From a virus, in the IMG/VR virus record IMGVR_UViG_3300045988_075559: 43,985 nucleotides of DNA; one strand, written 5' to 3'. Of this stretch, positions 3,148 to 43,562 are shown one piece after another; position 1 is the first letter of the stretch; every line of letters starts with the position of its first letter. A program made the position numbers and the translations under genes. Under the pieces are notes generated by a model. That model ran no database searches. It was not told the origin of the DNA and saw only the letters and a list, made by a program, of their open reading frames with translations.

Positions 3148-4302
3148 TCATACTCCTGTAACAGTTGCATCTTTAATTGTCAGCTGCCCGTTCACGAACG
3201 CTTCTTCGTCTTTCACCGTGCAGTCTTCCCTTTCGATTGCCCTGAAGATTGTAAGATCTTCTTCAAATGCATTCAGTTCTCCGATCTGGGCGATGTTAGA
3301 TGTCATAAGAGTCATCTGGTTTCTATCCCAGAATTTGATACCCTCTTTCAAATCTCCGATAATAACTGGTATCTTTCTACTTCCTGCTGTCTTTGTATCG
3401 GATGGCATATCGGAGTTTGGAATAACTTTGACAGGAACAATTGTTGATCCAGCGCAAAGTCTAAGCTGCATTGGATTTGCAGGATCCGGCTGGAGAAGAT
3501 ATCTTCCTTCGTTATCCTTTAATGTATCAAGCCACTGTAACCCATCGTCGTTTGTCACAATTGCAGAAGTAGGTTTAAATGCCTGTCCAAGCGTGATATT
3601 CAATGCTTTCTTGATATCATCAAGATCTTTCATTGCTGTTACATCCTTTGTCGCAATCTGCTCAAGAATCATTTTATTTCTTGTGACTCTTGACTCATCC
3701 GCAATCCATGTTGTCAAAGCTCCCGTAATATTTGCATCTGTATCCGCAAGAAGTTCATTTGTGCAAGGAAAATATCCTGCATATTTTTCAATCTCGTATG
3801 AGATTCTTTCGAACTGCGGGGTTGTTCCAGCTGTTATCTTTCCACCTTCTCCCACTTTCGCAAACCCAGTCTGCTGCGCACGTTTCTTATAGGTTCTCTG
3901 GCCTTTGTTTGTTGTTACATTTTCTACATCAACCAGGCTGATCAGAGAGAATTTTGCGCCTCTGTATGTATTGATCTGTGTCTGGATGTCTTCCGGGACT
4001 GTATATCCTCCATCTGCAGGTGTGCCTTCTACCATAGTTGCGTTTCGGAATCCTCTTCTTGCAGCATTAGCAAATTCTTTGATAGAGTTATTTTCTAACG
4101 GTTTCGGTTCCTGTGATGGATTGGCTGTTCCATCTCCGTCTGGATCCATGATGTCTTTCAGAAGGTCAAACTGTTCCTGCATATCTTTAAGTTCTTCCTT
4201 GGCTGTTCTTGCTTCTTCCAGCTTTCCCTGCTCTACCAGGGACTGTACCATTGTTTTTTTCTCATTAATAGAGTTTAAAAGTTCTAATAATTTTTTATTC
4301 CT
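3148..4302 (-). CDS. Major capsid protein (HK97 fold type), proposed AGG start
   Basis: Capsid-like 367-aa ORF downstream of the protease. AGG 4300-4302 is 5 nt after GGAGG (4308-4312) and adds NKKLLELLNSINEKKT, a coiled-coil N-terminus. No ATG/GTG/TTG lies in frame before 4251, and that ATG lacks an SD. Confidence 0.85.
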   Translation of the reverse strand, partial: RNKKLLELLNSINEKKTMVQSLVEQGKLEEARTAKEELKDMQEQFDLLKDIMDPDGDGTANPSQEPKPLENNSIKEFANAARRGFRNATMVEGTPADGGYTVPEDIQTQINTYRGAKFSLISLVDVENVTTNKGQRTYKKRAQQTGFAKVGEGGKITAGTTPQFERISYEIEKYAGYFPCTNELLADTDANITGALTTWIADESRVTRNKMILEQIATKDVTAMKDLDDIKKALNITLGQAFKPTSAIVTNDDGLQWLDTLKDNEGRYLLQPDPANPMQLRLCAGSTIVPVKVIPNSDMPSDTKTAGSRKIPVIIGDLKEGIKFWDRNQMTLMTSNIAQIGELNAFEEDLTIFRAIEREDCTVKDEEAFVNGQLTIKDATVTGV

Positions 4303-4319
4303 TATATCCTCCGTTCCGC

Positions 4320-4982
4320 TCAGATACCATACTGATCTAAGTCTCTTAATATTTCTTTTTTCTGCTGTTCTTTTGCTTCCTGGGCTTCTTTTTCCTGTTT
4401 TACTTTATTGCGTATTTCATCCGTCAGTCTGACTCCGCACACGCAATTAAAGAACTGCTGCCCTGAATTCTCGATCTTATCAATAAATCCAAGTTCAAGA
4501 GCCTTCTCTGCTGTGATCCATGTTTCCTTATCCATCATTTTCAGGATTTCATCTTTTGATCTTCCTGTTTTTTTTGCATACGCTTCCGAAAGCGCACTGT
4601 TCATTGTTTTCAGGATTTCTGCGTTCTTCTGCATATCATGATAATCTCCGGAAGCTCCTGACATTGAGACATTGTGGATCATTATAGTCGCAACAGGGCT
4701 CATTTTGCATGTGTTTGCCATTGCAATCACACTGGCTGCACTACCAGCAAGCGATTGAATGTTGATTTCCACGTCACTTCTTCCGGCAAGAATAGAATAG
4801 ATTTCCTGTCCTGCCATCACAGAGCCGCCGCCTGAGTTTATGTTTACCGTGAGTGTTTCTCCTGGTTGAAGAGAGGCAATTGCATTCCTGATATCATTCG
4901 GACATGTGGAATCCCAGTCCAGCCAGTCGTAAATCCATTTATCATCATTGCTGATGATATCCCCTCTTACATCAATCTCCAT
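4320..4982 (-). CDS. ClpP-family (S14) prohead maturation protease
   Basis: ATG 4980-4982 is 8 nt after GGAGG. Motifs: ...NINSGGGSVMAG...LAGSAASVIA...IMIHN. Confidence 0.85.
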   Translation of the reverse strand: MEIDVRGDIISNDDKWIYDWLDWDSTCPNDIRNAIASLQPGETLTVNINSGGGSVMAGQEIYSILAGRSDVEINIQSLAGSAASVIAMANTCKMSPVATIMIHNVSMSGASGDYHDMQKNAEILKTMNSALSEAYAKKTGRSKDEILKMMDKETWITAEKALELGFIDKIENSGQQFFNCVCGVRLTDEIRNKVKQEKEAQEAKEQQKKEILRDLDQYGI

Positions 4983-6252
4983 CTCCTTCACCTCCCTGTG
5001 TGTTAACTCCGTAAGCCGCGCCTATATGTGTTATTGGCTGATACGTTCCGTTTACCATGTTGACATCTCCTCCGTCCACGAAAGGAAGATCAAGGAGATC
5101 TCTCCCCTCATTGATCGTATAGATTCCGTTCTGCACGTATCCAGTTATTACTTCCTTCTGTGTCTTTGAATCCGTTCTCAATAATGCTTTTTCGTTGAAT
5201 TTAAAATAATATCCTTCTTTTTTCTCAGTATCAGAAAGACATTTATAGTTTATCTCCTGCTCGTACTGTGACAATCTATAGCTCATCGTGTCCACCAGGA
5301 ATGCCAACTGCTGGCTTTCAGAATTTGAATAGCTTGACTTATCATAATCGTTTAGCTGATTTGGTTTAATTCCGAATGCTGCTGCAATCTGCAATGCCGT
5401 ATATTTTTTTATCTCTGCATACTGCGCATCTGCCAGAGTTACGTTTAGTGGCTGCAGTGTCATACCAACTGGTACCGCCACCACTTTACCTGCGTTTTTA
5501 GCGCCTGAAAGTAATGCGTTGTATTCCTTTTGCAAGGCCATACGCTTTGGTTTATCAAGGTCTCCTGTATACTGCAACGCTGCCTTTGCGGTTAATCCGC
5601 TAGCATACAGCTGATTCAAGTATTTCTGTGACTCCACTGCGCCCGAAATTGAATCCTGTAAGATCTGCCTTACCGGTTTTCCCATGATTCCATTAAGTGT
5701 GCACCATGTTTTAAAGTGCATAACATTATCCTGTGAAAAAGTGTATGTCTTTCCGGTCTTAGGATCGCTGTATCGATAATACAGCCTTCCTGCGTCTCCG
5801 AACACTCCCACATCATCCATTAGCACATCCACATAATTGCTCTGCATAGGCCAGAATGAAAGAATGTTGTATTCTCCTCCATATCTTCCCTTTTTCTCGA
5901 ATTTCGTCTGTATCCATACATACGCATTTCCATAATGTTCACAATTATATTCTATCGTGCCCCAGAACGTCGCCGGAGTCATGATCTGATTTGGTCTGTT
6001 CATAAGGAGCCATGAAGCTCTCGTCGGATCTGCCCGTATTTTTCCCTTATCGGTCTGCTTATAAAATTTCAGTGGCATTTTCCCCATTGTTTCTGAAAGC
6101 ATTTTTAAGCATGTAAAATACGTTACTTCTCCAATTGCATTTCGTGGGGTTTTTGGATCAATTCCAAGCCACTCCATTAGCCTTTCATCATCTATTGATG
6201 TAGGCTCTCCAACAAGGGAATTCCACATTTCTTTAATTTTCTGTAGAATCCT
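4972..6252 (-). CDS. Portal protein (HK97 family), proposed AGG start
   Basis: Portal-like 418-aa ORF after TerL. AGG 6250-6252 is 7 nt after GAGGAG (6260-6265) and adds ILQKIKE. The ORF-track ATG 6226-6228 has no SD. Confidence 0.8.
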   Translation of the reverse strand, partial: RILQKIKEMWNSLVGEPTSIDDERLMEWLGIDPKTPRNAIGEVTYFTCLKMLSETMGKMPLKFYKQTDKGKIRADPTRASWLLMNRPNQIMTPATFWGTIEYNCEHYGNAYVWIQTKFEKKGRYGGEYNILSFWPMQSNYVDVLMDDVGVFGDAGRLYYRYSDPKTGKTYTFSQDNVMHFKTWCTLNGIMGKPVRQILQDSISGAVESQKYLNQLYASGLTAKAALQYTGDLDKPKRMALQKEYNALLSGAKNAGKVVAVPVGMTLQPLNVTLADAQYAEIKKYTALQIAAAFGIKPNQLNDYDKSSYSNSESQQLAFLVDTMSYRLSQYEQEINYKCLSDTEKKEGYYFKFNEKALLRTDSKTQKEVITGYVQNGIYTINEGRDLLDLPFVDGGDVNMVNGTYQPITHIGAAYGVNTQGGEGDGD

Positions 6253-7996
6253 TCAATATCTCCTCAATAAAATTATCAATGTAATCTCCGTAATCGTCTC
6301 CGAATGCATGAAACATTGCCAGCTTATACGCACATAGTGTTGCATCCACCGGGTCGATTCTCTTTGTTGTTGCATCTTTATCAATTTTGATCAATCCATT
6401 GTTCTGCCGGATTACCGCATTACTCATCGCATAATTCAGCAGAGGATTGTAAGTATATATAATATTTCTGCAAAATACCTGCTCTCTGAATCCCTGTGTT
6501 GCTTCGTTTAAATGTTTGTGGCTCTGAAATACTTCTTCGACATCGTATCCTTCATCTGACAGATCCATCATTAATTTACTTGCATTTGCAGGGTCAAAGC
6601 ACAGGCATTGTATTTTTAATTTCATTTTTTCGCAGGTCTCAAGAACATATCTCATAACTGCTCCCTGATCTACGATCGGAGTGTTTGTTACCTCCAGAAA
6701 TCCCATACGTTCCCACGCGTCATAGGCAACCTTGTCTTTTATAATATGTTCCTGAAGCTTCTCCCTTGTCGGGATAAAACTGTGTGACCAAAGAATATAC
6801 TTTACTATTTCTTTTCTATTCGCATCATATTCCCCGGATAAAAATGGAATCATAAACGCCACTGATGTAAGATCTGTCTTTGCGGACATATCGAAACCTA
6901 CATACACCGGATGTCCCGTTATATCAAATGGTAATTCATTCACCTGGCAGGCTTTCCATTTCGACATGTCCATATACCCATTCTCTTTCGCCTGCACCCA
7001 GACATCCAGACATTTTGTGAGGAAGGCCGTCATATGTTCTGGCTGTTCTCTGGCAATCTTATATTCACCGCGAATCTTATCGACACCTTCCGGATATGTC
7101 ATTCTAATCGGATTAGCTTTCTTCCAAGTCTCTTCGTTATCCAGATTTGAAATGTCTTCATAATCTTCCGGGTCCATCTCACAAATGTCGATTAGATATT
7201 CATCATTCTCCACGTCCGTGTTTGGATCCAACACCTTGGAACAATACTGATACTCAGTCACATAACAAGGATAAGTTAAATCCATTCCAGCTGTTGTTAT
7301 GATCATCAAGAGCGGCTCTTTTGTGTTTGATCCTATTCCTAAATCATAGAACTCCGTGGTTTTGTGCTGATGATACTCATCCAAAACCAGAAGTGCAGGG
7401 TTTGTACCATCCCCGGACTTTCCATCGTCTTTTGATAATGGTTTGATTGTGCTATTGCTTTTCAGATGTTTTATACAGTCCCTGGTTACCTTAAATTTCA
7501 TCCTCAAAGGTGATCCTTGAAGCATTAATCCGGCTTCCCCGAATACAATCTTGGACTGATCGCGTTTTGTGCCGGCGGTATAAATCTCGTATACTTCTCC
7601 GTTCTTGGTTGATGTAACTGCTGCCTCATAGAGTGCAATACCTGCCTCTTCCTGAGATTTCGCATTCTTTCTAGCCACTTCTGTGAAATATTTCTTAAAA
7701 CGTCGATATCCGGTATCTTTATGCACCCATCCGTACAGCTGGCAGATTCTAAATCTCTGCCATGGTGTTAGAATGATCGGTTGCTTTGCCAGAACTCCTT
7801 TACTATGTCGTAAGAGCGCAAACCATTCTACAATGTTCTCTGCCTGTCTTTCATTCCACACATACGGGAAATCCAATTGACCGATTCGGTCAATATCTTT
7901 CAACAATCTTTTGCAGGCCCATATGTGTTTCCTGCCGCTGATAATCTTTCCAGAGATACAATCTAATGCGTATTGTTTTAATTCATCAAGGATCAT
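6233..7996 (-). CDS. terL: Terminase large subunit
   Basis: 587 aa with ATPase and nuclease halves. The ATG overlaps the TerS stop (ATGA coupling). Confidence 0.9.
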   Translation of the reverse strand: MILDELKQYALDCISGKIISGRKHIWACKRLLKDIDRIGQLDFPYVWNERQAENIVEWFALLRHSKGVLAKQPIILTPWQRFRICQLYGWVHKDTGYRRFKKYFTEVARKNAKSQEEAGIALYEAAVTSTKNGEVYEIYTAGTKRDQSKIVFGEAGLMLQGSPLRMKFKVTRDCIKHLKSNSTIKPLSKDDGKSGDGTNPALLVLDEYHQHKTTEFYDLGIGSNTKEPLLMIITTAGMDLTYPCYVTEYQYCSKVLDPNTDVENDEYLIDICEMDPEDYEDISNLDNEETWKKANPIRMTYPEGVDKIRGEYKIAREQPEHMTAFLTKCLDVWVQAKENGYMDMSKWKACQVNELPFDITGHPVYVGFDMSAKTDLTSVAFMIPFLSGEYDANRKEIVKYILWSHSFIPTREKLQEHIIKDKVAYDAWERMGFLEVTNTPIVDQGAVMRYVLETCEKMKLKIQCLCFDPANASKLMMDLSDEGYDVEEVFQSHKHLNEATQGFREQVFCRNIIYTYNPLLNYAMSNAVIRQNNGLIKIDKDATTKRIDPVDATLCAYKLAMFHAFGDDYGDYIDNFIEEILKDSTEN

Positions 7997-8502
7997 ATTG
8001 CACCAAACCGGTTTTCAATTTCTTTCTGCTGCTTATTCACTTTTGCCGTGCCGGCTTTCAGTCTCGAATCAATTGTCAATCCACACAAGGCAGCAAAGCG
8101 TCGCATTTCTTCCGCATATCCTTTCTGAATGTCTACCATCGGATTCTTTACGACAATTACTCCGGTTCTGGTTTCTCTGTCAACATAATATGTCTGCTGA
8201 CTTAATATTTCTGTGGCTTTTACATAGTTTGCGAACGCATTACAATAGCCTCCGATATTATTCCTGTCCAGGTTTCCGACTATATTTAGTTTATCCAACT
8301 CTTTTATGATCCTGCGCCATTCTTTTTTTGCCACATCATCTATCAGCCATGTCGGAGGACGTTTGAGCTGGTTTTTCTCTGTTCTTACCTGGTCTTCTGC
8401 GTCTGCTTTCTTTTGTCCTTCTACTATTGTCAGGTGCTTTTTCTGCAAGCTGACTGGTTTCATTGGTCTTGCCCTTGTCCTCCCTCCTCTCTGGCCTGCC
8501 AA
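7993..8502 (-). CDS. terS: Terminase small subunit (P27 family)
   Basis: TTG 8500-8502 gives MAGQRGGRTRARP, the usual family N-terminus. ATG 8542-8544 is an alternative. Neither has a clear SD. Confidence 0.65.
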   Translation of the reverse strand: MAGQRGGRTRARPMKPVSLQKKHLTIVEGQKKADAEDQVRTEKNQLKRPPTWLIDDVAKKEWRRIIKELDKLNIVGNLDRNNIGGYCNAFANYVKATEILSQQTYYVDRETRTGVIVVKNPMVDIQKGYAEEMRRFAALCGLTIDSRLKAGTAKVNKQQKEIENRFGAI

Positions 8503-9001: not shown

Positions 9002-9072
9002 TAGCGGGAGACGGATTCGAACCGCCATTCCAGGCTAAGGAGGCCTGTAAGTTTCCGTTACTTTATCCCGCG
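9002..9072 (-). tRNA. Initiator-like tRNA with anticodon CCU (decodes AGG)
   Basis: 71-nt cloverleaf with acceptor CGCGGGA/UCCCGCU and C1 opposite U72. D stem AAGU/ACUU (A11:U24); anticodon arm CAGGC-CUCCUUA-GCCUG; T arm GGCGG-UUCGAAU-CCGUC; A73. No encoded CCA. Confidence 0.75.
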
Positions 9073-9079
9073 GTAATTA

Positions 9080-9153
9080 TGGACATTCTGAGATTTGAAC
9101 TCAGGACCGTCCGGTTATGAGCCGGATGCTCTGACCAGCTGAGCTAAATGTCC
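9080..9153 (-). tRNA. tRNA with anticodon CAU, elongator type (Met or Ile2)
   Basis: 74-nt canonical cloverleaf: GGACAUU/AAUGUCC (G1:C72 paired), D arm GCUC-AGCUGGUCA-GAGC, anticodon arm UCCGG-CUCAUAA-CCGGA, T arm CUGAG-UUCAAAU-CUCAG. Confidence 0.85.
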
Positions 9154-13397: not shown

Positions 13398-13625
13398 TTA
13401 TCTGTATTTGTAAATCTCTTTTATATTTTTGAGCTGTACTGTCTTAGGTCTTTTCCCTCCCTGGTTATACTGAAATCCGGTATCTGTAATCTTTGTAATT
13501 GTTGCACTTCCAAATCCACCGCCTTCATGTCCAGACGCTTTGTTGAAAGTTACTCCTACTGTATCTCCCACTTTGAATTTCTGTCCGTTGTCGTCAATTA
13601 TTATTTTTTCTGTTCTGTAATTCAT
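13398..13625 (-). CDS. Small hypothetical protein (75 aa)
   Basis: ATG 13623-13625 overlaps the ParB-like stop (ATGA). The ORF-track extension to 13778 lies inside the upstream gene. Confidence 0.55.
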   Translation of the reverse strand: MNYRTEKIIIDDNGQKFKVGDTVGVTFNKASGHEGGGFGSATITKITDTGFQYNQGGKRPKTVQLKNIKEIYKYR

Positions 13626-15745
13626 TTTTGAATCTCCTTCAAGAATTCCACAAGTTCTGTTTCGCTGTTTTGATATTTGTTGTATCTGGAATGGTAGTTC
13701 CATCCTTTGTCGTTCTTGCATTCCGGCTTTGGTCCTCCTACAAGGTGCATGTAATGGTGTTCCCCTGGCGTATACCACTGGCTTTTTTCTGATGGATCCG
13801 GAGCAAATTCTTCTACGATCAGGCGGGCGCCGTTCGCGAAATCGTATTTGTAGTATTTAATTCCTACGTTCTTGTCCTCGTACCAGAGTCCCCAGCTCTT
13901 ATAGTTCTTTAGCCATTCCTTGCGTTGATCATTATTCTTCATGATTGGCAATCCTGGCTGTTCCGGTTCCTCCTGACAGTCTTCTACAATATTTTTGAGA
14001 ATTCTGAGTCCTGCTACAAGCATTTGTTGTTTTTTAATCACCAACTCTGGAAATCCTGTTTCTTCTTTCTCAACTTCCGTCATCTGTTTTAACAGGTCTT
14101 CTTGTTTTTGCAGATATATTGATAGATCGCCCGTTGATGGAATCGGGATATCTTTTAATTCCTCCGGCCATGCATCTGGGATTTTATCTGCATTTCTCAG
14201 ATGTTTTACCATCTTGGTGGAATCGCCGGAATGGTCTTCCTGCTGCTTTTTGTCCGGCGTTTCTGCTGCCGGTTGGCAGCTCTCTTCTATCCATTCGCAG
14301 CGGCTATTGCAATCTTCCGGGCATTGTAAGCAACAATTATATGGGTTATCGCAATAAGCAGCTGCCCCGCATATTCCTGATCCAGATTTTCCAGTGATAC
14401 ATTTTGCCGGTTCGGTTTTTTCTTTCTGTTCCGGCTGTTTAGTCGGACGATGCGCGGATGAATCACACTCATACCCGCAATCTCCATGCTTTTTGCAGTT
14501 CCAGCAGCATTTTTCATTGCATTTCTCTCCGTCTCCCTCTGCTACCTTCTGGGCTTCTGAAAGAGTGCAGTGGAATCCTTTTCTGTGAATGCACTTTCCG
14601 GAATTGATTTCTTTCTTATCTGGCTTCTCCGGGGCGTCAATTGTGATCATTTTGACTGGTTTTTTGACAGAATAACGTTTGATCAGTTCCTCTGTCAGCT
14701 CCTGCCAGGACATTTCTACTTCTTCCTGGCTATCCGGATTGAAGGTAATCTTATCCTGATGTCCCTGGTAATTAAGATATCCGTTGCGGATTTTTACATA
14801 GCAATACAACATACTAAGCATTTTTACGCTCATTAGCTTGTCTCCGTTGCGAATCCGGGCTGTTGTATTCTTCTTTAAGCTTTCGAAGAATCTTTCTATC
14901 TGCAGGTCTACAGGAATAGGTGTTTCGTCTTCTTGTGGCTTCTGCTGCCTGATCGCCTGCTCTATTGTCATCTGTCCCGGAATGTCTGCATTTAATGCCT
15001 GCTGATCCTTCAGGAGTTGAATATCTGGAAGAGTCAGGATTTTGTTCTTCATGTACATCTCGTATGCCATCTTCTGCAGTTCCGGTTCCAGGGACGCTGC
15101 AGCATCTGCCACAGAAATGTTAATCTCTCCATCCTGAAACTCTTCCATCAGTTCCTCTGACAGATGATTGCTAATGTTCTTGTAACGACCGAACTGAGCG
15201 TTTGACACTCCAAGGAGTTCTTTTAAATTCTCTCTGACTGTTCCAGTGATTCCAACCTTCTCTTTCAGACCCTTAACAATCTTCTCCATCTCCAGAGCTT
15301 CCTGCATTCTTTCCCAATCATTCTTATCTCTGTAATTGTTTGCCTGAATCACCTTAAATTGTCTCAAGAATGGCGTGATTGCTTCTCTCTGCTCTGGTGT
15401 CAGTTCTTTGTCCTCTGAAACATTAATTTCCGCAGCATACATGCACGGAACCTTCTCGAATCTGGTGTCCCCTTCTTCGATTAACTCTATGCAGCACAAT
15501 CTTCTGCGATGGCCGGCAAGCACTTTGTCTTTTCCATCTACATTTTCTATCAGAATCGGCTGCATCAGGTACCCTGTGATCTTTATCGACGCTTTGAGTT
15601 TGCTAATGTTTTTTGTTGTGTAGAAGTTTTCCTGAGTCGGCACCAATTCTCTGGGATCCTTGTATATAATTGCCTGCTTCTCTTTTCTTTCCGGCAAGGA
15701 CCGCTTTGACAGCATGTCCAGCGCACTAAATTTCTCTCTTCCCAT
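13622..15745 (-). CDS. ParB/Srx-domain protein with HTH and Cys-rich insert (707 aa)
   Basis: N-terminal ...KVLAGHRRRLCC... ParB-type motif and ...LLGVSNAQFGRYKNI... HTH-like segment. It is adjacent to ParA. Confidence 0.7.
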   Translation of the reverse strand: MGREKFSALDMLSKRSLPERKEKQAIIYKDPRELVPTQENFYTTKNISKLKASIKITGYLMQPILIENVDGKDKVLAGHRRRLCCIELIEEGDTRFEKVPCMYAAEINVSEDKELTPEQREAITPFLRQFKVIQANNYRDKNDWERMQEALEMEKIVKGLKEKVGITGTVRENLKELLGVSNAQFGRYKNISNHLSEELMEEFQDGEINISVADAAASLEPELQKMAYEMYMKNKILTLPDIQLLKDQQALNADIPGQMTIEQAIRQQKPQEDETPIPVDLQIERFFESLKKNTTARIRNGDKLMSVKMLSMLYCYVKIRNGYLNYQGHQDKITFNPDSQEEVEMSWQELTEELIKRYSVKKPVKMITIDAPEKPDKKEINSGKCIHRKGFHCTLSEAQKVAEGDGEKCNEKCCWNCKKHGDCGYECDSSAHRPTKQPEQKEKTEPAKCITGKSGSGICGAAAYCDNPYNCCLQCPEDCNSRCEWIEESCQPAAETPDKKQQEDHSGDSTKMVKHLRNADKIPDAWPEELKDIPIPSTGDLSIYLQKQEDLLKQMTEVEKEETGFPELVIKKQQMLVAGLRILKNIVEDCQEEPEQPGLPIMKNNDQRKEWLKNYKSWGLWYEDKNVGIKYYKYDFANGARLIVEEFAPDPSEKSQWYTPGEHHYMHLVGGPKPECKNDKGWNYHSRYNKYQNSETELVEFLKEIQK

Positions 15746-15747
15746 TG

Positions 15748-16512
15748 TTACCTCCCTATCATCCGCAGATATTCCTCTACAAGTGTCTGATAGTCTTCTG
15801 CTGCCGCTGACCGCTTGCTATATAACACAACCGGTGTTCTGGCATATGTACTCTTTGCAACTGCCAGAGAATTTCTGATCACCGTCTCCATCGTCGGATA
15901 CCATTTCCTTATAATCTCCGCTCCCTGGCTATGCGCTTCGTTGTATTTGTTGTACTTGCTGATAAAGCACTTTACATTTTCCAGATCTGGGTTCAATTCA
16001 CATTTAATCTCATCGATCTGATCCAGAAGCTCATCCATGCCTTCTGTTGTGTTGTCGTCGACTTCTACCGGGATCAGAACATCATCTGCTGCCGTCAGCG
16101 CATTAATAACGGATACATTGATGTCCGGGGCATTATCGATCACACAGTAATCATAATTGTCTTTTACCTGTTGCAGGGCGTTCTTTAGTCTGGTCTGCTG
16201 AGGTCTTACACGGTCCATCGTCACCTCCATGTTTGCTGTCAGAAGGTTCAGATTCGCAGTGATCACATCTAAATTCTCGTAATCTGTTTTCTGGATCAGG
16301 CTTACCATGTCTGGTTTCTTGTCAACCATTATCTTGTCTATTCCTGCCCCTTCCTGGGTGCGTCGGTTCATCCCCCTCGAACAATCTCCCTGTTTGTCGT
16401 TATCTACAAGAAGGACTCTCTTTCCCTTTGTAGAAAGAATGTAAGCAATATTGATGCTTGAGGTGGTCTTTGCCACCCCTCCTTTTAAATTGATAATTGC
16501 AATTGTTCTCAT
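15748..16512 (-). CDS. ParA/Soj-type partition ATPase
   Basis: Walker A INLKGGVAKTT and ...LLVDNDKQGD.... ATG 16510-16512 (SD AAGGA) is preferred over the ORF-track start at 16584. Confidence 0.8.
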   Translation of the reverse strand: MRTIAIINLKGGVAKTTSSINIAYILSTKGKRVLLVDNDKQGDCSRGMNRRTQEGAGIDKIMVDKKPDMVSLIQKTDYENLDVITANLNLLTANMEVTMDRVRPQQTRLKNALQQVKDNYDYCVIDNAPDINVSVINALTAADDVLIPVEVDDNTTEGMDELLDQIDEIKCELNPDLENVKCFISKYNKYNEAHSQGAEIIRKWYPTMETVIRNSLAVAKSTYARTPVVLYSKRSAAAEDYQTLVEEYLRMIGR

Positions 16513-16531
16513 AATCGTTTTCCTTTTTTTG

Positions 16532-16942
16532 TCATTCTCTTTCTTTACCTCTGCTGCATCCTTCGTCTTCTTCCAGGCTTTCATCCAACCCTCTTGCGAG
16601 TCTGCACCAGTCTAATCCGGTTTCTTCGTGCGCTCTATATATACAGTCTTTGCAGAGTACAATTCTTCTGTACTTTTTCAACAACTTCCAAGCCTCACTC
16701 TGGGCGAAAGAATTGATTTCGTCATATTCTGCCTTTATTTTACTTATGTGCTTACTCATTTCGCACGAACTGCAGAAATAAAACTCAAGTGCTTCCTGGT
16801 TGGTCGTCTTCTCTCTGTATTGACAGATGTTGTTGCAGATGTAACTCTCCAAAGCTTCAATGTCTGTGTCTATTCCTTCGCTTTCGGTCTTCGTCAGCGC
16901 GGCGCATCCATTCAGGTTTTCCTCCTTCTGGTTCGCTTTCAA
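16532..16942 (-). CDS. Hypothetical Cys-rich protein (136 aa)
   Basis: TTG 16940-16942 is 7 nt after AAGGAGGG. It overlaps the alternative-frame ORF 16857-17081, so the boundaries are uncertain. Confidence 0.4.
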   Translation of the reverse strand: MKANQKEENLNGCAALTKTESEGIDTDIEALESYICNNICQYREKTTNQEALEFYFCSSCEMSKHISKIKAEYDEINSFAQSEAWKLLKKYRRIVLCKDCIYRAHEETGLDWCRLARGLDESLEEDEGCSRGKERE

Positions 16943-17001
16943 AGTAAATCCCTCCTTTCCGGTCTTTGTAGTACGTGAATCTGTATCCGGATTTAATGAT
17001 C

Positions 17002-17511
17002 TCACCCAGATACTCCATTTCTGCCGGGTTCTGTTCTGGTCTCAGGCTCCAGCCTTTGCCCCATAGTTCTTCTGCATTCATCTTTTCTCTTTTCCATCTC
17101 CTCCTGCAGCCACCCGGAGTAACTGTGTTTCTCAGTCTTTTCGGACAATTGATGTGCATCAGGAAGGGCATGGACGGCCGCATATACCCGCTTCCATTCT
17201 TCTGCATTCCTGATCGGTTCTCCTTTGGTGTCTTTCCATCCGGATCCGGCCAGCTCTTCCAACTTCAGGATCCTGCTGCTTACATATGCGTCCCGGGTAT
17301 GTACACAGATCTCCGAAGGTACTGTCATGCGTTCCAGGGCTTCTGCCAGTGTGAGCAGGACAGTCTGGTGATAGGTTCCCTTGTAATGTCCGAAACCCTC
17401 TCTGGTCTTTTCCTCATTGTGTACCAATACCGAGAGGACATATCCACATTTTCTGTCTGTAGTCCCCTGGAAAATACTGCTGGTCTCAAGATATATATCT
17501 ACATGTGTCAT
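17002..17511 (-). CDS. RNase H-like protein
   Basis: ATG is 5 nt after GGGGGG. The pattern VDIYLETSS...HQTVLLTLAEAL...HTRDAYV is reminiscent of the RNase HI fold. The C-terminal about 25 aa may be out-of-frame read-through. Confidence 0.4.
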   Translation of the reverse strand: MTHVDIYLETSSIFQGTTDRKCGYVLSVLVHNEEKTREGFGHYKGTYHQTVLLTLAEALERMTVPSEICVHTRDAYVSSRILKLEELAGSGWKDTKGEPIRNAEEWKRVYAAVHALPDAHQLSEKTEKHSYSGWLQEEMEKRKDECRRTMGQRLEPETRTEPGRNGVSG

Positions 17512-17512
17512 T

Positions 17513-18271
17513 TCATCCCCCCTTGTCTATCCTTATAAGGGTATAGTGCCGGTATGCATATCCTGTGTAGGGGTTAATCCCCATTTTCACAGACTCCGGA
17601 TCCACGTAATATCCTTTCGGAGCTTTCGGGTAGATTGGCCGTTTGTGCCGGTCCACCAGATTTCTTCTTTTTATCTCTTTTTGCTTAGGTTCTTTCCGGA
17701 TCAGGTTACGGGAGCAACTATATCTCTTAATTTCGTCCGGTTCATGTTCTTCCAGAGGCTTTGTGATATACTCTGAAAGTTTCACATATCCTCCGGCATC
17801 ATAGAGAGATGCGAAATATACATGCCCGTTCTCCCACAGTTCTGATATGATCCTGTCTGTTCCGGTCTCCTGATCTGCTTCTCTGTTTACCAGAAGGTGC
17901 ACATGGGGGCCGCCTTTCTTTCCAATTGCCAGGCGGTAAATATATTTCAGTTCCCATCCCTTTTTCTTATATTTCAGTCGGACTTTTCTGATCAGCTTCG
18001 CAAGATCTTTCTTCATCTGTTCCCACGCGGGGCGTTCCCCCTTCTTGTATGTGAGAGTCATCCAGTAATCGCCCGGAGAGAAATTCCACTTGATCAGTCT
18101 CCTGACATCTCTTTCCCTTCTCCACTGGTTCTGTTTGGCAATTTCTTCCGGAGTAGCTTTCTTTTTCTCTTCTCTTTCCTGTCCCCTGGCTCCATACCTT
18201 CCGGTATGCTTTTCCTCTATCTCCATGGTACTCCCAAAGTCCCATATCTCCCTTATGTATGCCCATCTCAT
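17513..18271 (-). CDS. Rolling-circle replication initiator (HUH endonuclease)
   Basis: ATG is 7 nt after AGGAG. Motif 1 is YWMTLTYKK, the HUH motif is GGPHVHLLVN, and the Tyr motif is YVKLSEYITKP. Confidence 0.65.
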   Translation of the reverse strand: MRWAYIREIWDFGSTMEIEEKHTGRYGARGQEREEKKKATPEEIAKQNQWRRERDVRRLIKWNFSPGDYWMTLTYKKGERPAWEQMKKDLAKLIRKVRLKYKKKGWELKYIYRLAIGKKGGPHVHLLVNREADQETGTDRIISELWENGHVYFASLYDAGGYVKLSEYITKPLEEHEPDEIKRYSCSRNLIRKEPKQKEIKRRNLVDRHKRPIYPKAPKGYYVDPESVKMGINPYTGYAYRHYTLIRIDKGG

Positions 18272-31737: not shown

Positions 31738-32478
31738 TTAAAATTTTAATCTGTATTTCAATCGGCTTCTTTTTCTGCTAAAACGCACCTTATCTACGGT
31801 TGGATCAGAATACATTTTGAGTCTGCCCTTTACAACCTTAAAGGCGGCAAAATGGACGTTTCCGGTTTCGCCTTTAAGTTCAGTTTCTTTCTGGTGGACA
31901 TAATTATCAATGTCTTTCTTTCCCTCTTCTACTCTGCCGGGAATAGATGCTGCAACTTTCTGTGCTTCTCCGGCATAGTATTTCGCATTGTCTTCTTTTT
32001 GCTCCGGATAATCTCCTCTTCCGTGTGCCCAGGCCTCTGCCTGGTCTCTGGCTTTTTCTGACCGGTCGGCTGCCTGATTGACTGCCTCGACCGTCTCTCT
32101 GAAAATCTCCGGTTCTTCCGGCGATCCGGGAACCTCCGGTTTTGGTCTTGCTTTTATTGGTATGGTTATTTTATGTTCTGTATTTCCAGAATTATTTTCA
32201 CTCAGGTATATGAATGCGTATATTTTGTAATTTTGGTCGATTTCTTCGTTCTCCAGCATGGAATCCGGAATTGGCACATCTGTTACAGAATCTTTCGTTG
32301 TTCCTATTCTTGTTACAGATGTTCCGCCTGTTTCTTCCAATGAGAAATGTATCTCAATAGCCGGCCGTAGAGTAAGTCCCTGAATTCTTAAAATTTGTCC
32401 ATAATCCCACTGCCACGCTGTTTCGGCCCGAATATTTGTTTCTGCTTCTGAAAAAACAGCAGTGATTATATTATTCCT
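31738..32478 (-). CDS. Fibre-module virion protein (family not recognised), proposed AGG start
   Basis: The frame is open for 46 codons upstream of the ORF-track TTG (32340, no SD). AGG 32476-32478 is 6 nt after GGAGG (32485-32489) and overlaps the rSAM 3' end. Confidence 0.6.
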   Translation of the reverse strand, partial: RNNIITAVFSEAETNIRAETAWQWDYGQILRIQGLTLRPAIEIHFSLEETGGTSVTRIGTTKDSVTDVPIPDSMLENEEIDQNYKIYAFIYLSENNSGNTEHKITIPIKARPKPEVPGSPEEPEIFRETVEAVNQAADRSEKARDQAEAWAHGRGDYPEQKEDNAKYYAGEAQKVAASIPGRVEEGKKDIDNYVHQKETELKGETGNVHFAAFKVVKGRLKMYSDPTVDKVRFSRKRSRLKYRLKF

Positions 32479-34482: not shown

Positions 34483-35142
34483 TCATTTTACCGCAGATGA
34501 AACCTGCCCATAGCATGTATCTTTGCATGTATTTCCGCAATTAGTAGAACAATTTGACGAGCATGAAGTACTGCATCCTCCGCAAATCGTAGAACAGCTA
34601 TTTGAACACGATTCCGCGCATCCTCCCATGCATGAAGATGTACATTCGGATCCGCATGAACTTCCGCATGAGCTGCATCCAGAACAGCCAGTGCATGATG
34701 TCGAACACGATGCTGTGCATCTATTGTCGCATCCAGTACAGTATCCTGAACATGTCCCAGAGCATCCAGAGCAATCGTATGAACAACTGTACCCGCATCC
34801 AGTACATCCATTTTTGCAGCCGCCCGAACAGTCATCTGCGCATGTTGCAAAGCAATTGCCTCCGCATGCATTTGTGCAGTCTGCGCAAGTCTGCGCACAA
34901 TTTGTCGTGCAGGTCTGGAAGCAATCCGTTTTGCAGCCACCCGAACAGTCATCTGCACATGTTGCCTGACAACCCGTACATTCATCCTCACATGCTCTGT
35001 TGCATAGCCTATCACAATTCCCACTGCATCCAGTTTTACAGCTGGTTGAGCATGCGGTTCCGCATGAGCTTCCGCAATTTCCTTTCGTCGTATTTTGACA
35101 ACTTGTCGCGCACTGAGTTCCGCAACTAGATGTACAAGCCCT
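34483..35142 (-). CDS. CXXX-repeat Cys-rich protein (219 codons, 54 Cys), proposed AGG start
   Basis: Absent from the ORF track. This 660-nt open frame, (AGG)ACTSSCGTQCATSCQN...CKDTCYGQVSSAVK, has no N-terminal ATG/GTG/TTG. AGG 35140-35142 is 8 nt after AGGAGG (35151-35156). Stop is TGA 34483-34485. Confidence 0.7.
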   Translation of the reverse strand, partial: RACTSSCGTQCATSCQNTTKGNCGSSCGTACSTSCKTGCSGNCDRLCNRACEDECTGCQATCADDCSGGCKTDCFQTCTTNCAQTCADCTNACGGNCFATCADDCSGGCKNGCTGCGYSCSYDCSGCSGTCSGYCTGCDNRCTASCSTSCTGCSGCSSCGSSCGSECTSSCMGGCAESCSNSCSTICGGCSTSCSSNCSTNCGNTCKDTCYGQVSSAVK

Positions 35143-35163: not shown

Positions 35164-35691
35164 TTAAGCTTTTATTGATGTAGTGCATCCCGCGCCGCAT
35201 GTATGTGTGCAGCCGCTCGAACAGCCGCCTGTGCAGCCGCCACAGCCGCCTGAACAGCCATCTGAGCACTGTTTTCCACATGTAGTGCTACAGTTTCCAG
35301 AGCACGAAGCGCACCCCATACAGGCAGATGCACAGGCCAGTTCGCATAGACCTGTGCAATTCCCCCTACACCCCGATACCTTTGCATCTTTCTGTATGTT
35401 CAGCATTTTGTCTGCGAAATTTTCCGCTCTTTCCAAAGTCATTTCAAGAGCAGTTCTTTCTTTTCTCAGACTGTTATCTTGCAGGAAATCATTGATTTCC
35501 AGAAGTGGATCAATAATCTTTTGAATGTGCTCATCTGAAACCTGTTTTCCATTCTGCGGCATGAAATCAAAATCATATTCCTGCGATGCATATTTCTTCA
35601 GTGAACCTCCCATTTGTTCTGCTGTTCTGCTCATCATTGTTTTTTTTACTTTTTCTTTGATCCGTTTCAAAGATTCAGCTGTTATAATCCT
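35164..35691 (-). CDS. Protein with helical N-domain and C-terminal CXXX-repeat tail (17 Cys), proposed AGG start
   Basis: AGG 35689-35691 is 7 nt after AGGAG (35699-35703). The ORF-track TTG 35670 lacks an SD. C-terminus: CRGNCTGLCELACASACMGCASCSGNCSTTCGKQCSDGCSGGCGGCTGGCSSGCTHTCGAGC. Confidence 0.7.
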   Translation of the reverse strand, partial: RIITAESLKRIKEKVKKTMMSRTAEQMGGSLKKYASQEYDFDFMPQNGKQVSDEHIQKIIDPLLEINDFLQDNSLRKERTALEMTLERAENFADKMLNIQKDAKVSGCRGNCTGLCELACASACMGCASCSGNCSTTCGKQCSDGCSGGCGGCTGGCSSGCTHTCGAGCTTSIKA

Positions 35692-37864: not shown

Positions 37865-38258
37865 TCACCTCCCCGTCTCCAAGCTCTGTTATCAATCGAA
37901 ATGAAACCGTTACTTTTCCTTCATCTTTTGTACACGTAAAATTTTCAATTCCCGTTATGTACGGATTTTCTGTCAGGCACTCCTCTGTCATCCGTTCCAG
38001 TTCGGAATCTGTCAGTTCTTTTGAGTAGCTTTTTCCGATAAGTTCTTCATATTCCTGTCCATAGTCCTCTGAATAAATATAGTATCTATATCTTGGCGTT
38101 TTTAATGCCAGCCATACCCACACAAGAAGTGCATCGTATCCTTCCACTATCTTTCCGGAAAGCTGGCCGGTTTCAAAATTGATTCCATATTCCCGTGGAA
38201 TATATAAATTTTCTTCTTTCTCATCATCTTCTTCGTTGTCCACGAACGGAAACATCAT
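37851..38258 (-). CDS. XkdS-like (DUF2634-type) baseplate protein
   Basis: ATGA-coupled start. Segment ...WLALKTPRYRYYIYSEDYGQEYEELIG.... Confidence 0.55.
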   Translation of the reverse strand: MMFPFVDNEEDDEKEENLYIPREYGINFETGQLSGKIVEGYDALLVWVWLALKTPRYRYYIYSEDYGQEYEELIGKSYSKELTDSELERMTEECLTENPYITGIENFTCTKDEGKVTVSFRLITELGDGEVNAEV

Positions 38259-38578
38259 TCTGGCACCACCACCTTTGCTATCACCACATATTTTTCATGT
38301 TTATTAAGTTTTATAAGAAGGACTCTGTCTCCTTCCTGTAGAATATTTTTCTTGTATTCTTCCAGTGTTGCATTATGTGAAGAATCCGTCATATATTCTG
38401 CTGATTGTGGCTTCGAATTATGTATGAATATTTTTTTCTTATTGTCCAATCTTAGATTACAATTTATTAGATAATCATTTTTGTCCAGCGTCATGGTATC
38501 TATTTTAATCTTTCCCGCATCCATCATAATTCCCAGTTGAGGCGGCTGAGCATTGTAATATCGCCCAGCTCTTCTCAT
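38255..38578 (-). CDS. XkdR-like (DUF2577-type) baseplate protein
   Basis: C-terminal ...EGDRVLLIKLNKHEKYVVIAKVV pattern. The start is uncertain. Confidence 0.5.
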   Translation of the reverse strand: MRRAGRYYNAQPPQLGIMMDAGKIKIDTMTLDKNDYLINCNLRLDNKKKIFIHNSKPQSAEYMTDSSHNATLEEYKKNILQEGDRVLLIKLNKHEKYVVIAKVVVPE

Positions 38579-38604
38579 TTGCTCTACGTAACGTTCGTAT
38601 ATGT

Positions 38605-40536
38605 TTATAGACCTTTGTATCTTCCTCCGTTAACAGCTGCTGTCACTTTCTTTCCCTTCCATTGGCTTACATTAAGCAATGCTCCGGAATTTGAGTAATC
38701 ACTTCCACCCATGCTCTCAAATTCTATGATTGACCATCCAGACGATGGATAATCCTGCCAATGTCCGTATGCGCTTCCATTTTTATCTCCCGCGTTCTTT
38801 TCGTCCGCGACAAGGCAGTTTAACTTTATTCCTCCTTCCAGAGTAAAGCTCACAAGGTCTCCGCAGGATCCGAAGTATTCCCCAACTGCAACAAGATAAT
38901 ACCCATCTATTGTCGCAATTCCGTGATCGCTTGCCCGTCCTTTAGCATTCCACACATTCGCGACTCTTCTTTGCATAGAGTCTCCATTCCACCTGCTGTA
39001 CCAATATGGATATATTGTGTAATCCCATGGGCATATCCCAGATTGCTGCAGTCCTGCTGGTATTGGTTTCGATGTCCCGGATATTGTTGTGTCATTTCCT
39101 GTCGAAGCCGTCGTAGTAGGATAATCTATATAGCAAAATCCAAGGACTGTGCTGCAGGATGGACCGTTACTTCTTTTTACGGTATCGCTCAGATTGCCTT
39201 CTATGGAAACCCAGTTGTTTCCGGACATACTTTCGATGATTCCAATGTGTCCAGATCCTCCGTAGATAACCAGTGCTCCAAGTCGTGGCGAACTTCCAAA
39301 CTTTCCCCTATCCTTATACCAGTCCATGACATTAAAACAATATGCTTCTTTTCCTCCTCCCATGAAGAGATCGCCGTGTCCTGTTTTATTGAATATGGCC
39401 CAAATGAACATACAGCACCATGCCGCATCCCACCCATAATAGGTCGTTATTTCATTATGATTGCTTCCTGGCGGGTTCTCGCCCACTCCAATCCAGGCTC
39501 TTGCCTGATTTAGCACATCCTCTAATGCGTTACTTGTCCCTGATCCGAAAGAACCTTCCGATGTTTCCTGTTCTTCATCCTCTTCCTGGATGTCCATAAT
39601 ATTTTTAAAAGCCAGTTCCAGTTTTGTGGTGTATAAACCGCCACTCCATTCATGGCTGTCATTTTCTATCCAAAACTTTCCCTTGAGGCCGGTTCTGGAA
39701 TCTTCTATGATCACTCCTAATCCGGAGATGCATCTGCAGTCTCCTATCATTGTCAGGCTTGATGTTTTATCAATCCCATGAAGTTCTGTCTTCGCTTCTG
39801 CTTTTCCATTCCCCGAATCTACAGATATAGAATTTTGAAAGATTCCGAATTTATCAGCCCACTTTGAATTACTTATGCTTCCTATCTTTCTATTATCCGA
39901 ATTGTATATGTACACTCGGTTTACCATGCTGTCAATGTTTTCAGAATAAGAGGATTCTACAATTCTTTCCCCCTGGCAAATGTGGAAATTGGGGATAACT
40001 TTTCCTTTTTGTATAACCTCCAATTTATCTCTGTTCATCTGGGCTATATATGGCTTTTTATTCTTCCTGTACGCTTTTGTATATGCAGCCATGATGATTT
40101 CATAATACGATCTTTCCTGGAAGAATATTTTTGGAATGTTTATTTTGGTTTTAGCCAGGTCTCCCGTTTTTACTTTTACATCCTTGCATACCAAGGATGT
40201 AATCTTTTCAGGCGTCTTGTTTGCAAATTTGTAGGTTCCCGACGATCTGAGTAAATGAATCATTCCGTCCTGTGCGGTATACGAAAGTTCCCCTGCCTCT
40301 GATTTTCTTTCCCTGCATGTTACCATCCCAATGAATTTTGTCTTTTTATCATCCGGATATCCTGGGTAAAATGTTATTTTATCTCCCAGTTTAATTCCCA
40401 GGTTCTTTACGTTTTTGTCATTTGGGCTATATGCAACATTAAATACTACTGATCTGGCCGCTTGTTTTGCGCTTCCCGACCAGCTTACCGATGTAACGTA
40501 CCCAGTTATATTCGTATCTTTCCAATTCAGTTTCAT
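38605..40536 (-). CDS. XkdQ-like baseplate hub protein fused to CHAP peptidase and a further C-terminal lytic-like domain (tail lysin)
   Basis: ATG 40534-40536 overlaps the upstream TGA. CHAP signature ...DAAWCCMFIWAIF...GHIGII...EGN. Confidence 0.65.
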   Translation of the reverse strand: MKLNWKDTNITGYVTSVSWSGSAKQAARSVVFNVAYSPNDKNVKNLGIKLGDKITFYPGYPDDKKTKFIGMVTCRERKSEAGELSYTAQDGMIHLLRSSGTYKFANKTPEKITSLVCKDVKVKTGDLAKTKINIPKIFFQERSYYEIIMAAYTKAYRKNKKPYIAQMNRDKLEVIQKGKVIPNFHICQGERIVESSYSENIDSMVNRVYIYNSDNRKIGSISNSKWADKFGIFQNSISVDSGNGKAEAKTELHGIDKTSSLTMIGDCRCISGLGVIIEDSRTGLKGKFWIENDSHEWSGGLYTTKLELAFKNIMDIQEEDEEQETSEGSFGSGTSNALEDVLNQARAWIGVGENPPGSNHNEITTYYGWDAAWCCMFIWAIFNKTGHGDLFMGGGKEAYCFNVMDWYKDRGKFGSSPRLGALVIYGGSGHIGIIESMSGNNWVSIEGNLSDTVKRSNGPSCSTVLGFCYIDYPTTTASTGNDTTISGTSKPIPAGLQQSGICPWDYTIYPYWYSRWNGDSMQRRVANVWNAKGRASDHGIATIDGYYLVAVGEYFGSCGDLVSFTLEGGIKLNCLVADEKNAGDKNGSAYGHWQDYPSSGWSIIEFESMGGSDYSNSGALLNVSQWKGKKVTAAVNGGRYKGL

Positions 40537-43396: not shown

Positions 43397-43562
43397 TGTT
43401 TTTCATCTCCTCTTTTAAGTCTTGCATTTCCTGTTTCAAAAAAGCGCGGGTGATTAATCGTTCACCCGCGCCCATATTGTAATATTTCGATGGCTTCCAT
43501 TTTTTCAGGCGGAACAATGCGTAAGCAACGCTTGCTTCGCTGTCCACCTTTATAAGTTTTTT
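43386..43562 (-). CDS. -1 frameshift extension of the tail assembly chaperone
   Basis: After the A-AAA-AAC slip the -1 frame stays open for 56 codons (LIKVDSEASVAYALFRLKKWKPSKYYNMG...KNKGR), ending at TAA 43386-88. Confidence 0.7.
   Translation of the reverse strand, partial: KKLIKVDSEASVAYALFRLKKWKPSKYYNMGAGERLITRAFLKQEMQDLKEEMKNKGR

Follow-up and report, generated by a model that had tools for sequence, protein, structure and literature searches.

Analysing a 43,985-nucleotide (nt) stretch of viral DNA (IMG/VR record IMGVR_UViG_3300045988_075559; hereafter the window), we found that its major capsid gene, located on the minus strand, very probably begins at an AGG codon at positions 4302-4300, which would be one of about eleven AGG starts of late genes and would be read by a phage-encoded initiator transfer RNA (tRNA) with the anticodon CCU. 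To our knowledge, natural start codons are thought to comprise AUG and its near-cognates differing at the first or third position, all of which are read by a single initiator tRNA, tRNAfMet. Sequence comparison shows the start positions, the interchange of AGG and ATG at these positions, the kind of tRNA involved and its co-occurrence with AGG starts. For the wider group, we consider it likely that in several temperate phage lineages from Clostridia of the gut (Lachnospiraceae), which between them use four or more tRNA bodies, a CCU initiator tRNA encoded at the head of the late operon makes AGG an efficient, phage-private start codon that toggles freely with ATG.

A domain search placed a Clp protease gene and a portal gene upstream of the capsid gene, and the TGA at 4322-4320 (minus strand) is the stop codon of the immediate upstream neighbour, a ClpP-type prohead protease. 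Read 5' to 3' on the minus strand, the junction consists of GGT ATC TGA, GCGGAAC, the Shine-Dalgarno sequence GGAGG, ATATA and AGG, followed by AAT AAA AAA TTA TTA and then by GAA CTT TTA AAC TCT ATT AAT GAG AAA AAA ACA, after which ATG GTA CAG is reached. From 4404 down to its stop codon at 3148, the capsid frame is uninterrupted, and the 34 open codons upstream of the AGG overlap the 3' end of the protease gene. The relevant features are the following.

4308 to 4312, minus strand: Shine-Dalgarno sequence GGAGG of the capsid gene, 5 nt 5' of the AGG; homologues starting with ATG have the same GGAGG or GAGG at 5 nt.
4300 to 4302, minus strand: AGG, at which the major capsid gene is proposed to start; it aligns with the ATG of homologues, and AGG occupies this place in at least three clades of the capsid tree.
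3148 to 4302, minus strand: re-annotated coding sequence of the major capsid protein, 384 codons plus stop, with an HK97 fold and about 97 N-terminal residues forming a delta (scaffolding) domain, based on PF05065 and the homologue alignment.
4249 to 4251, minus strand: ATG of Met18, the start picked by open reading frame (ORF) finders and gene callers and probably an internal Met; it has no Shine-Dalgarno sequence, and the Met is absent in the loci L096/L212 and L213.

A preliminary description of this DNA had set the capsid start at the AGG lying 5 nt after GGAGG, and had stated that the 17 codons upstream of Met4251 hold no in-frame ATG, GTG or TTG and that ATG 4251 is not preceded by a Shine-Dalgarno sequence. 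All of this agrees with our reading of the frame: from 4404 onwards it contains no ATG, GTG or TTG before 4251, the 16 codons after the AGG included, and there is no usable Shine-Dalgarno sequence in GAGAAAAAAACA, which lies directly 5' of ATG 4251. The encoded protein belongs to the major capsid proteins of the HK97 type (PF05065, E = 3e-41, residues 98-373 counted from the AGG), and in it the capsid domain is preceded by a coiled-coil region of about 100 residues that is conserved among homologues, as in HK97-fold capsid proteins with a delta domain. A blastn comparison of the capsid region with GenBank phages returned no match.

We searched 5.8 billion proteins for homologues of the capsid protein, obtained more than 6,000 relatives and compared start positions in the best 120. 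Nearly all of these 120 begin with MNKKLLELLN..., and their Met aligns exactly with the AGG. Thus, the alignment came out in favour of the AGG and not of the equivalent of Met4251, and the 17 codons before Met4251, which the preliminary description had taken for a genuine N-terminus, correspond to the N-terminus of the homologues. AGG 4302 combines a GGAGG at 5 nt with the ATG position of the orthologues, while Met18 is not preceded by a Shine-Dalgarno sequence. At the DNA level, 62 IMG/VR loci carry either ATG or AGG at the same spot after GGAGG or GAGG, with a spacing of about 5 nt. Within the clade of the window, the capsid AGG is present in 28 independent assemblies of 96-99% identity, and it was also found in L026/L088 (87%), in the clades of the protein clusters P0004 and P0028 (85% and 76%), in L096/L099/L212 (70%) and in L213 (72%). 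Since the AGG sits exactly at the ATG position of the homologues, in 28 assemblies and in several more distant clades, it is beyond chance. A neighbour-joining tree of the capsid proteins contains at least three separate AGG groups, each of which has an ATG sister and which are interleaved with ATG clades.

Two further observations concern the stretch between the AGG and Met18. In the AGG clade of L096/L212 there is no Met18, and the first in-frame canonical start is codon 93, past the delta domain, so that initiation there would mean loss of the whole domain. Among AGG lineages, the ratios of synonymous to non-synonymous differences in codons 2-17 were 8:4, 5:1 and 8:3, including switches between the serine codons TCT and AGC; because the differences are mostly synonymous, these codons appear to be translated, in line with the N-terminus proposed in the preliminary description. 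The internal AGG codons 354 and 358 of the capsid gene align with invariant Arg, from which we conclude that the elongation meaning of AGG is unchanged; a general reassignment of the codon was rejected on the same grounds. Importantly for culture work, the AGG-start capsid gene is not confined to metagenomic material: the isolate Lacrimispora defluvii PI-S10-B5A (L212, NZ_JAAOXG010000061.1) harbours a prophage whose capsid gene starts with AGG and which encodes a tRNA(CCU) of what we call type 2.

Gene callers handle these genes inconsistently. Capsid clusters called at MVQSL... (for example P0001, 367 amino acids (aa), 669 member sequences) are AGG-bearing relatives that were truncated, and clusters called at MILMILEFEEEKRRNEK... 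or MSHLELEEIRNKK..., in which the Met position is occupied by an Arg codon, were spuriously extended into the 3' end of the protease gene. In the public protein clusters P0001, P0004, P0028 and P0121, AGG-start genes are mis-annotated in three ways, namely by truncation to an internal Met (the 367-aa capsid protein and a 341-aa coat protein), by extension to an ATG within the protease gene (MILMILEF...) and by extension to a TTG (LSHLEL.../MSHLEL...). As a side observation, the protease stop codon (TAA or TAG) of L026/L088, L034/L096 and L212 is in frame with the capsid ORF, 5 codons before the AGG; the protease and capsid frames differ by one in the window, and we judged the in-frame stop of the other loci to be coincidental.

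The capsid gene is not the only one of its kind in the window. We scanned all stop-to-stop ORFs for an in-frame AGG at Shine-Dalgarno spacing upstream of any canonical start and obtained eleven good AGG starts, all on the minus strand and each with a strong Shine-Dalgarno sequence at 5-10 nt, which comprise the capsid gene and ten more late genes. Orthologue starts were compared by tblastn, and PHROG profile coordinates served as a second check and agree with the AGG starts. The ten additional genes, all on the minus strand, are listed here.

8473 to 8475 (coding sequence 7993-8475), minus strand: AGG start of the small terminase subunit (phrog_83), AGGAGG plus 7 nt; ATG in L094, L097, L102 and L124, which lack the tRNA.
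6250 to 6252 (coding sequence 4972-6252), minus strand: AGG start of the portal protein (PF04860), AGGAG plus 7 nt; the L090 clade has an ATG one codon upstream.
1604 to 1606 (coding sequence 527-1606), minus strand: AGG start of the tail sheath protein, AGGAGG plus 9 nt; L094 has ATG at the same codon, and residue 2 corresponds to position 2 of phrog_1480.
512 to 514 (coding sequence 80-514), minus strand: AGG start of a tail tube-like protein, AAGGAGG plus 7 nt; ATG in L094 and L096, residue 3 corresponds to position 4 of phrog_365, and the next canonical start is 23 codons further on.
43952 to 43954 (coding sequence 43550-43954), minus strand: AGG start of an XkdN-like tail assembly chaperone, AGGAGG plus 7 nt; relatives have ATG at the same codon, and the next canonical start is 53 codons further on.
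43394 to 43396 (coding sequence 41231-43396), minus strand: AGG start of the tape measure protein (phrog_1272); AGG in all phages with tRNA(CCU), while L094 has an ATG one codon downstream.
38612 to 38614 (coding sequence 38255-38614), minus strand: AGG start of a 119-aa tail-region protein, GGAGG plus 9 nt; AGG in all relatives, and the PHROG coordinates fit.
35689 to 35691 (coding sequence 35164-35691), minus strand: less certain AGG start of a 175-aa protein, AGGAG plus 7 nt, proposed from the Shine-Dalgarno sequence and ORF geometry only.
35140 to 35142 (coding sequence 34483-35142), minus strand: AGG start of a 219-aa Cys-rich protein, AAGGAGG plus 8 nt; the next canonical start is 171 codons further on, and phrog_6085 positions 49-123 correspond to residues 47-117.
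32476 to 32478 (coding sequence 31738-32478), minus strand: AGG start of a 246-aa protein, AAGGAGG plus 6 nt; the next canonical start is 46 codons further on, and phrog_16164 position 2 corresponds to residue 5.

All AGG starts fall into the late region, which runs from the tRNA genes to the tail genes and wraps around the ends of the window. They account for 11 of the 29 late genes, compared with 0 of 14 early, replication or partition genes (Fisher P = 0.008). AGG was found at 11 of 43 assigned start positions vs 4.9 per 1000 internal codons, an enrichment of about 50-fold whose binomial P of 1.8e-16 is somewhat overstated, as the AGG starts were found by searching for them. AGG is the only mutant codon that replaces ATG in the 11 genes. 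Within coding sequences it is a minor codon, with 47 occurrences in 9,671 codons compared with 225 for AGA, the dominant Arg codon, for which the phage encodes no tRNA. The chaperone gene starts with AGG in the window and in L082 and with ATG in relatives of 96-99% identity (the loci compared include L067 and L070); given this polymorphism among near-identical phages, AGG and ATG appear to toggle over very short evolutionary time.

The candidates at 2619, 40575 and 17523 were dropped, as they were ambiguous or better explained by a nearby canonical start. Other ways of reading the capsid junction were rejected as well: initiation at the preceding ATA or at an ATAAGG motif (the ATA is only 2 nt past the Shine-Dalgarno sequence, and other AGG starts have no ATA), a second Shine-Dalgarno sequence, TAAGGA, serving a downstream start (no in-frame start follows TAAGGA), and A-to-I editing of the ATA, for which, from general knowledge, the context is wrong. 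In passing, we observed that the N-terminal half of the 219-aa protein is extremely Cys-rich (CTSSCGTQCATSCQ...CGSSCGTACSTSCKTGCSGNC...); its only PHROG match was weak and is itself of unknown function.

The phage encodes two tRNAs at the head of its late operon, just before the terminase genes and about 4.7 kilobases (kb) upstream of the capsid gene.

9002 to 9072, minus strand: tRNA of initiator type (body type 1) bearing the anticodon CCU, the proposed AGG-reading initiator; found with ARAGORN and Rfam, it co-occurs with AGG starts.
9080 to 9153, minus strand: tRNA(CAU) with G1:C72 (elongator type), closest to E. coli tRNA-Ile2 (ileX); found with ARAGORN and Rfam.

The CCU anticodon is the exact complement of AGG, and the Arg label that ARAGORN assigns to this tRNA derives from the anticodon alone. 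Its body, 5'-CGCGGG...CCCGCUA-3', has an unpaired C1xU72, followed by G2:C71, C3:G70 and G4:C69, together with A73 and A11:U24, and the anticodon stem of the window tRNA contains G29:C41, G30:C40 and C31:G39. It is 65% identical to the E. coli initiator metY vs 44% to the tRNA-Arg(CCU) argW; across types 1 and 2 the values are 65-72% and 44-46%, respectively. Compared with an elongator tRNA-Arg(CCU), the unpaired 1:72, A11 and the low identity to argW do not fit, and only C35, U36 and, in the window variant, A20 do. Initiators have A11:U24, whereas elongators have a pyrimidine at position 11 and a purine at 24, and position 11 is A in types 1 and 2 vs U or C in E. coli argW, metT and ileX. An unpaired 1:72 is also an established feature that excludes a tRNA from elongation factor Tu (EF-Tu). 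Seven type 1 variants fold into a cloverleaf supported by five compensatory pairs; positions 1 and 72 are never paired and A11:U24 is invariant.

The same architecture recurs on other bodies. The type 2 tRNA(CCU) of the 70% AGG clade, AGCGGAGUAGAGCAGUCUGGUAGCUCGCCAGCCUCCUUAGCUGGAAGUCAGAGGUUCAAAUCCUCUCUCCGCAA, is 72% identical to metY and represents a tRNAfMet body in which A35 was changed to C. A pattern search of IMG/VR yielded three more initiator-bodied CCU tRNAs, types 3-5; the type 3 body is tRNAfMet-like and its best GenBank phage matches are all annotated as tRNA-Met. The 1x72 mismatch takes a different form in different variants (CxU in type 1, UxU in L213, AxA in type 2 and CxA in types 3-5), and the formylation determinants G2:C71 and C3:G70, with G4:C69, and A73 are as in metY in types 1 and 2, while type 3 has A4:U69. 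All variants share the anticodon CCU where tRNAfMet has CAU, so that we class them as initiator-type tRNAs and not as tRNAfMet. Among the matches listed, initiator-bodied phage tRNAs have either the anticodon CAU (at least 80 distinct sequences) or CCU (at least three) and no other. In all four tRNA types with visible context, the tRNA lies just upstream of the terminase genes.

The neighbouring tRNA(CAU) at 9080-9153 is 68% identical to E. coli tRNA-Ile2, 61% to the elongator and 55% to the initiator tRNA-Met, and is probably an AUA-reading tRNA-Ile2, consistent with the heavy use of ATA in the window (21 per 1000 codons). Because the type 2 and type 3 phages lack it, it is not needed for the AGG system. 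This tRNA varies much more among close relatives than tRNA(CCU) does. In phages of the P0028 clade (L226:3050-3124 and L227:279-353), ARAGORN also reports, about 2 kb before the tRNA pair, an odd tRNA-like gene whose anticodon loop has 8 nt ('cata', Met|Tyr).

Across loci, the CCU tRNA and the AGG starts go together. Whenever an AGG-start capsid locus extended for 5.2 kb or more upstream, it contained tRNA(CCU). The 80% clade whose capsid genes start with ATG (L090, L091, L093 and L098) has tRNA(CCU) as well, and here AGG starts are present in the genes for terminase, sheath, tube, tape measure and others; ATG relatives outside this clade have neither tRNA(CCU) nor AGG starts. The number of AGG starts preceded by a Shine-Dalgarno sequence was 12, 10, 7, 5, 5, 4 and 2 per locus with the tRNA vs 0-2 without, and the matches in loci lacking the tRNA were dismissed as chance, being located inside a Shine-Dalgarno sequence or out of frame.

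An independent replicate came from an unrelated phage family, characterised by Terminase_3, a portal of the SPP1 type, a scaffold protein and a P22-like coat protein, where AGG starts and tRNA(CCU) again go together. The coat genes of L349 and L350 start with AGG at the point where homologues begin MNKILTPQ..., and gene callers give the 341-aa truncation. Within 21 kb, L349 has six AGG starts, and its tRNA(CCU), of type 3, is located immediately upstream of TerL; the sequence of L350 begins downstream of the tRNA position. L351, which is 91% identical to L349, has an ATG coat start, no tRNA and 0 AGG starts. Counted by lineage, AGG starts occur in 4 of 4 lineages with a testable tRNA(CCU) vs 0 of 8 related lineages without it (P = 0.002), where the statistics are descriptive, since loci within a clade are not independent.

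Considering these associations, we infer that tRNA(CCU) is the decoder of the AGG starts. In the proposed mechanism, a phage gene located just before the terminase genes would supply a tRNA that goes back to an initiator of bacteria or phages and whose anticodon has changed from CAU to CCU. An ordinary strong Shine-Dalgarno sequence would position the 30S subunit, and the AGG in the P site would pair fully with CCU, with the middle base pair exchanged in a compensating manner between AUG:CAU and AGG:CCU. Owing to its initiator features (the 1x72 mismatch, G2:C71, C3:G70, A11:U24 and the anticodon-stem G:C pairs), the tRNA would be handled as an initiator and not as an elongator. In this way, the capsid protein would include the complete delta domain, as (X)NKKLLELLNSINEKKTMVQ..., with X being the amino acid carried by the tRNA. 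By established identity rules, C35 should abolish recognition by methionyl-tRNA synthetase (MetRS) and favour arginyl-tRNA synthetase (ArgRS), and the amino acid on tRNA(CCU) is probably Arg, possibly formylated. Engineered E. coli strains provide a precedent for such pairing: among 12 engineered pairs, metY(CCU) combined with an AGG start was induced most strongly in all six strains, by 35- to 402-fold, and in Nissle 1917 AGG with metY(CCU) was expressed above AUG (bioRxiv 10.64898/2026.04.16.719103). With the native initiator only, initiation at AGG is mis-initiation and is repressed by initiation factor 3 (IF3) (PMC6868393); because of this repression, AGG would be tightly "off" as a start codon in the absence of the special tRNA.

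The most serious competing explanation is that host tRNAfMet reads AGG by near-cognate pairing with the help of a strong Shine-Dalgarno sequence, while tRNA(CCU) is merely an elongator tRNA-Arg for a rare codon. ARAGORN calls the tRNA Arg by its anticodon, the phage has 47 internal AGG codons, and the native initiator supports some AGG initiation in E. coli, as cited in the above study of engineered pairs and with reporter work in PMC6868393. However, mis-initiation under repression by IF3 is implausible for the most abundant virion proteins, the body of the tRNA is initiator-like and not Arg-like, the phage carries no tRNA for AGA despite its 225 occurrences vs 47 for AGG, and sister phages lacking the tRNA, in hosts that are presumably similar, have no AGG starts; we therefore regard this explanation as unlikely. 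Translation from ATG 4251 would make the 17 preceding codons a relic left after loss of the start by ATG>AGG and the delta domain 17 residues shorter. Although ATG 4251 is the first canonical start, was chosen by gene callers in P0001 with its 669 member sequences, and encodes a Met18 that the nearest clades conserve, it lacks a Shine-Dalgarno sequence, and a GGAGG stands before the AGG at the spacing of 5 nt that is usual in the family. Moreover, L096/L212 and L213 lack Met18, with the next start of L096/L212 at codon 93, codons 2-17 are constrained at the protein level among AGG lineages, and ten other genes are alike, some of them without a downstream start for 46-171 codons, so that initiation at Met18 is in our view decidedly improbable.

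We give almost no credence to the view that the AGG is a broken start codon, owing to decay of defective prophages or to an error of sequencing or assembly. A single substitution turns ATG into AGG and the material is mostly metagenomic, but the identical AGG occurs in more than 30 independent assemblies, in the isolate genome of Lacrimispora defluvii and in several diverged clades, it is always AGG that replaces ATG in the 11 genes, the ORFs are intact with divergence biased to synonymous changes, and the complementary tRNA always accompanies the AGG starts. Just as improbable is the production of the capsid as a protease-capsid fusion, by frameshifting or stop readthrough, with no start codon of its own. 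Such a fusion would draw on the 34 open codons that overlap the protease gene and on the in-frame protease stop of L026 and L034; yet the frame relation varies, being -1 in the window vs in frame in L026/L034, the stop is TGA, TAA or TAG depending on the locus, and the AGG starts at 35142, 32478, 514 and 43954 have no open frame before them. A fusion would also be unable, as far as can be judged, to supply the large excess of capsid protein over protease.

Several points weigh against initiation at AGG by the CCU tRNA, starting with the fact that the whole case is built from comparative sequence analysis. The rule of three G:C pairs in the anticodon stem of initiators is only partly kept, with C:G or U:G at position 31:39 in type 1 and with A29:U41, G30:C40 and C or U31 opposite G39 in types 2 and 3; phage-encoded CAU initiator-like tRNAs vary likewise in these pairs. 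Several tRNA(CCU) variants have an unusual U37. A20, a major identity element for ArgRS in E. coli, is present in the tRNA(CCU) of the window and not in the other variants, and because of this lack of conservation the amino acid and the efficiency of charging are uncertain. Evidence for the AGG start at 35691 and, more doubtfully, for those at 2619 and 40575 consists of the Shine-Dalgarno sequence and ORF geometry. The contigs carrying types 4 and 5 end within about 2 kb downstream of the tRNA and fall outside the comparison of AGG starts. Finally, the tRNA seemingly belongs to the same operon as the genes that it would unlock, which makes a regulatory benefit less evident.

As to what the AGG system is for, the most likely purpose seems to be a translational lock or timer, by which many late proteins would come to depend on a tRNA made by the phage; the system might alternatively provide genetic isolation at the level of the module, or independence from the host initiator tRNA when the latter is under attack. 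A hint at its origin comes from L211, a prophage of Enterocloster lavalensis with an ATG capsid start, which carries at 1818-1892, the same genomic position as tRNA(CCU), an initiator-like tRNA(CAU) with U1xU72, an unusual anticodon loop, UUCAUGC, and an acceptor stem nearly the same as that of tRNA(CCU). This tRNA(CAU) may represent the ancestral state, which suggests an evolutionary path in which a phage initiator tRNA(CAU) acquired the CCU anticodon and start codons then drifted from ATG to AGG.

If our reading is correct, a dedicated natural initiator tRNA that defines AGG as a start would be a new kind of natural variation of the genetic code, acting at the initiation step, and a new layer of phage gene control or isolation in which late proteins depend on a phage tRNA. 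It would also be the natural counterpart of synthetic orthogonal initiation, using the very CCU/AGG pair that engineers found best. The full-text literature that we searched for a natural non-AUG initiator tRNA or a private start codon gave only engineered cases, with a coverage that misses most subscription journals, so that a prior description is possible. The analysis further exposes a systematic annotation error, in that capsid, portal, sheath and other genes are truncated or overextended in public sets and the tRNAs are labelled tRNA-Arg. The proposal is directly testable, as cultured Lacrimispora defluvii PI-S10-B5A carries such a prophage.

Outside the late genes, the early region of the window at 13622-18271 (minus strand) contains genes for a ParA-type ATPase at 15748-16584 and for a Rep-like protein at 17513-18271 (PF23343). 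We came across no integrase, an observation made only in passing, and instead of an integrating prophage the element may be a phage-plasmid.

Compared with known systems, the phage arrangement most closely resembles the engineered orthogonal initiators of E. coli, which are anticodon mutants of metY such as i-tRNA(CCU)/AGG or the amber pair CUA/UAG and likewise combine an initiator body, a changed anticodon and a complementary non-AUG codon placed after a Shine-Dalgarno sequence; among these, CCU/AGG is the same pair as in the phage and was reported to be the most efficient and portable. While the engineered initiators are laboratory constructs, the phage system is natural, conserved and predicted to serve many essential late genes, and its tRNA bodies, unlike engineered metY, have diverged (compact D loop, U72, U37 and an altered anticodon stem). 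With bacterial and phage tRNAfMet, tRNA(CCU) shares the 1x72 mismatch, G2:C71, C3:G70, G4:C69, A73 and A11:U24, and it differs in having CCU for CAU and in keeping the three-G:C rule only partly; by the known identity rules it cannot be a substrate of MetRS. Natural near-cognate starts, namely GUG, UUG, CUG, AUU and AUA (for example AUU in infC, and GTC in sigR), are decoded by tRNAfMet with a first- or third-position mismatch and often hold expression low under the control of IF3. Initiation in these cases is likewise non-AUG and directed by a Shine-Dalgarno sequence, whereas the AGG system would involve a middle-position mismatch to tRNAfMet, highly expressed genes and a dedicated, fully complementary tRNA. 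In crAss-like and Lak phages, TAG or TGA codons in late genes are read as sense by phage suppressor tRNAs, so that, as proposed here, a non-standard phage tRNA gates late or structural genes and gene callers mis-annotate them. Stop-codon recoding alters the meaning of a stop during elongation, whereas the AGG system would add a start codon and leave AGG as Arg in elongation.

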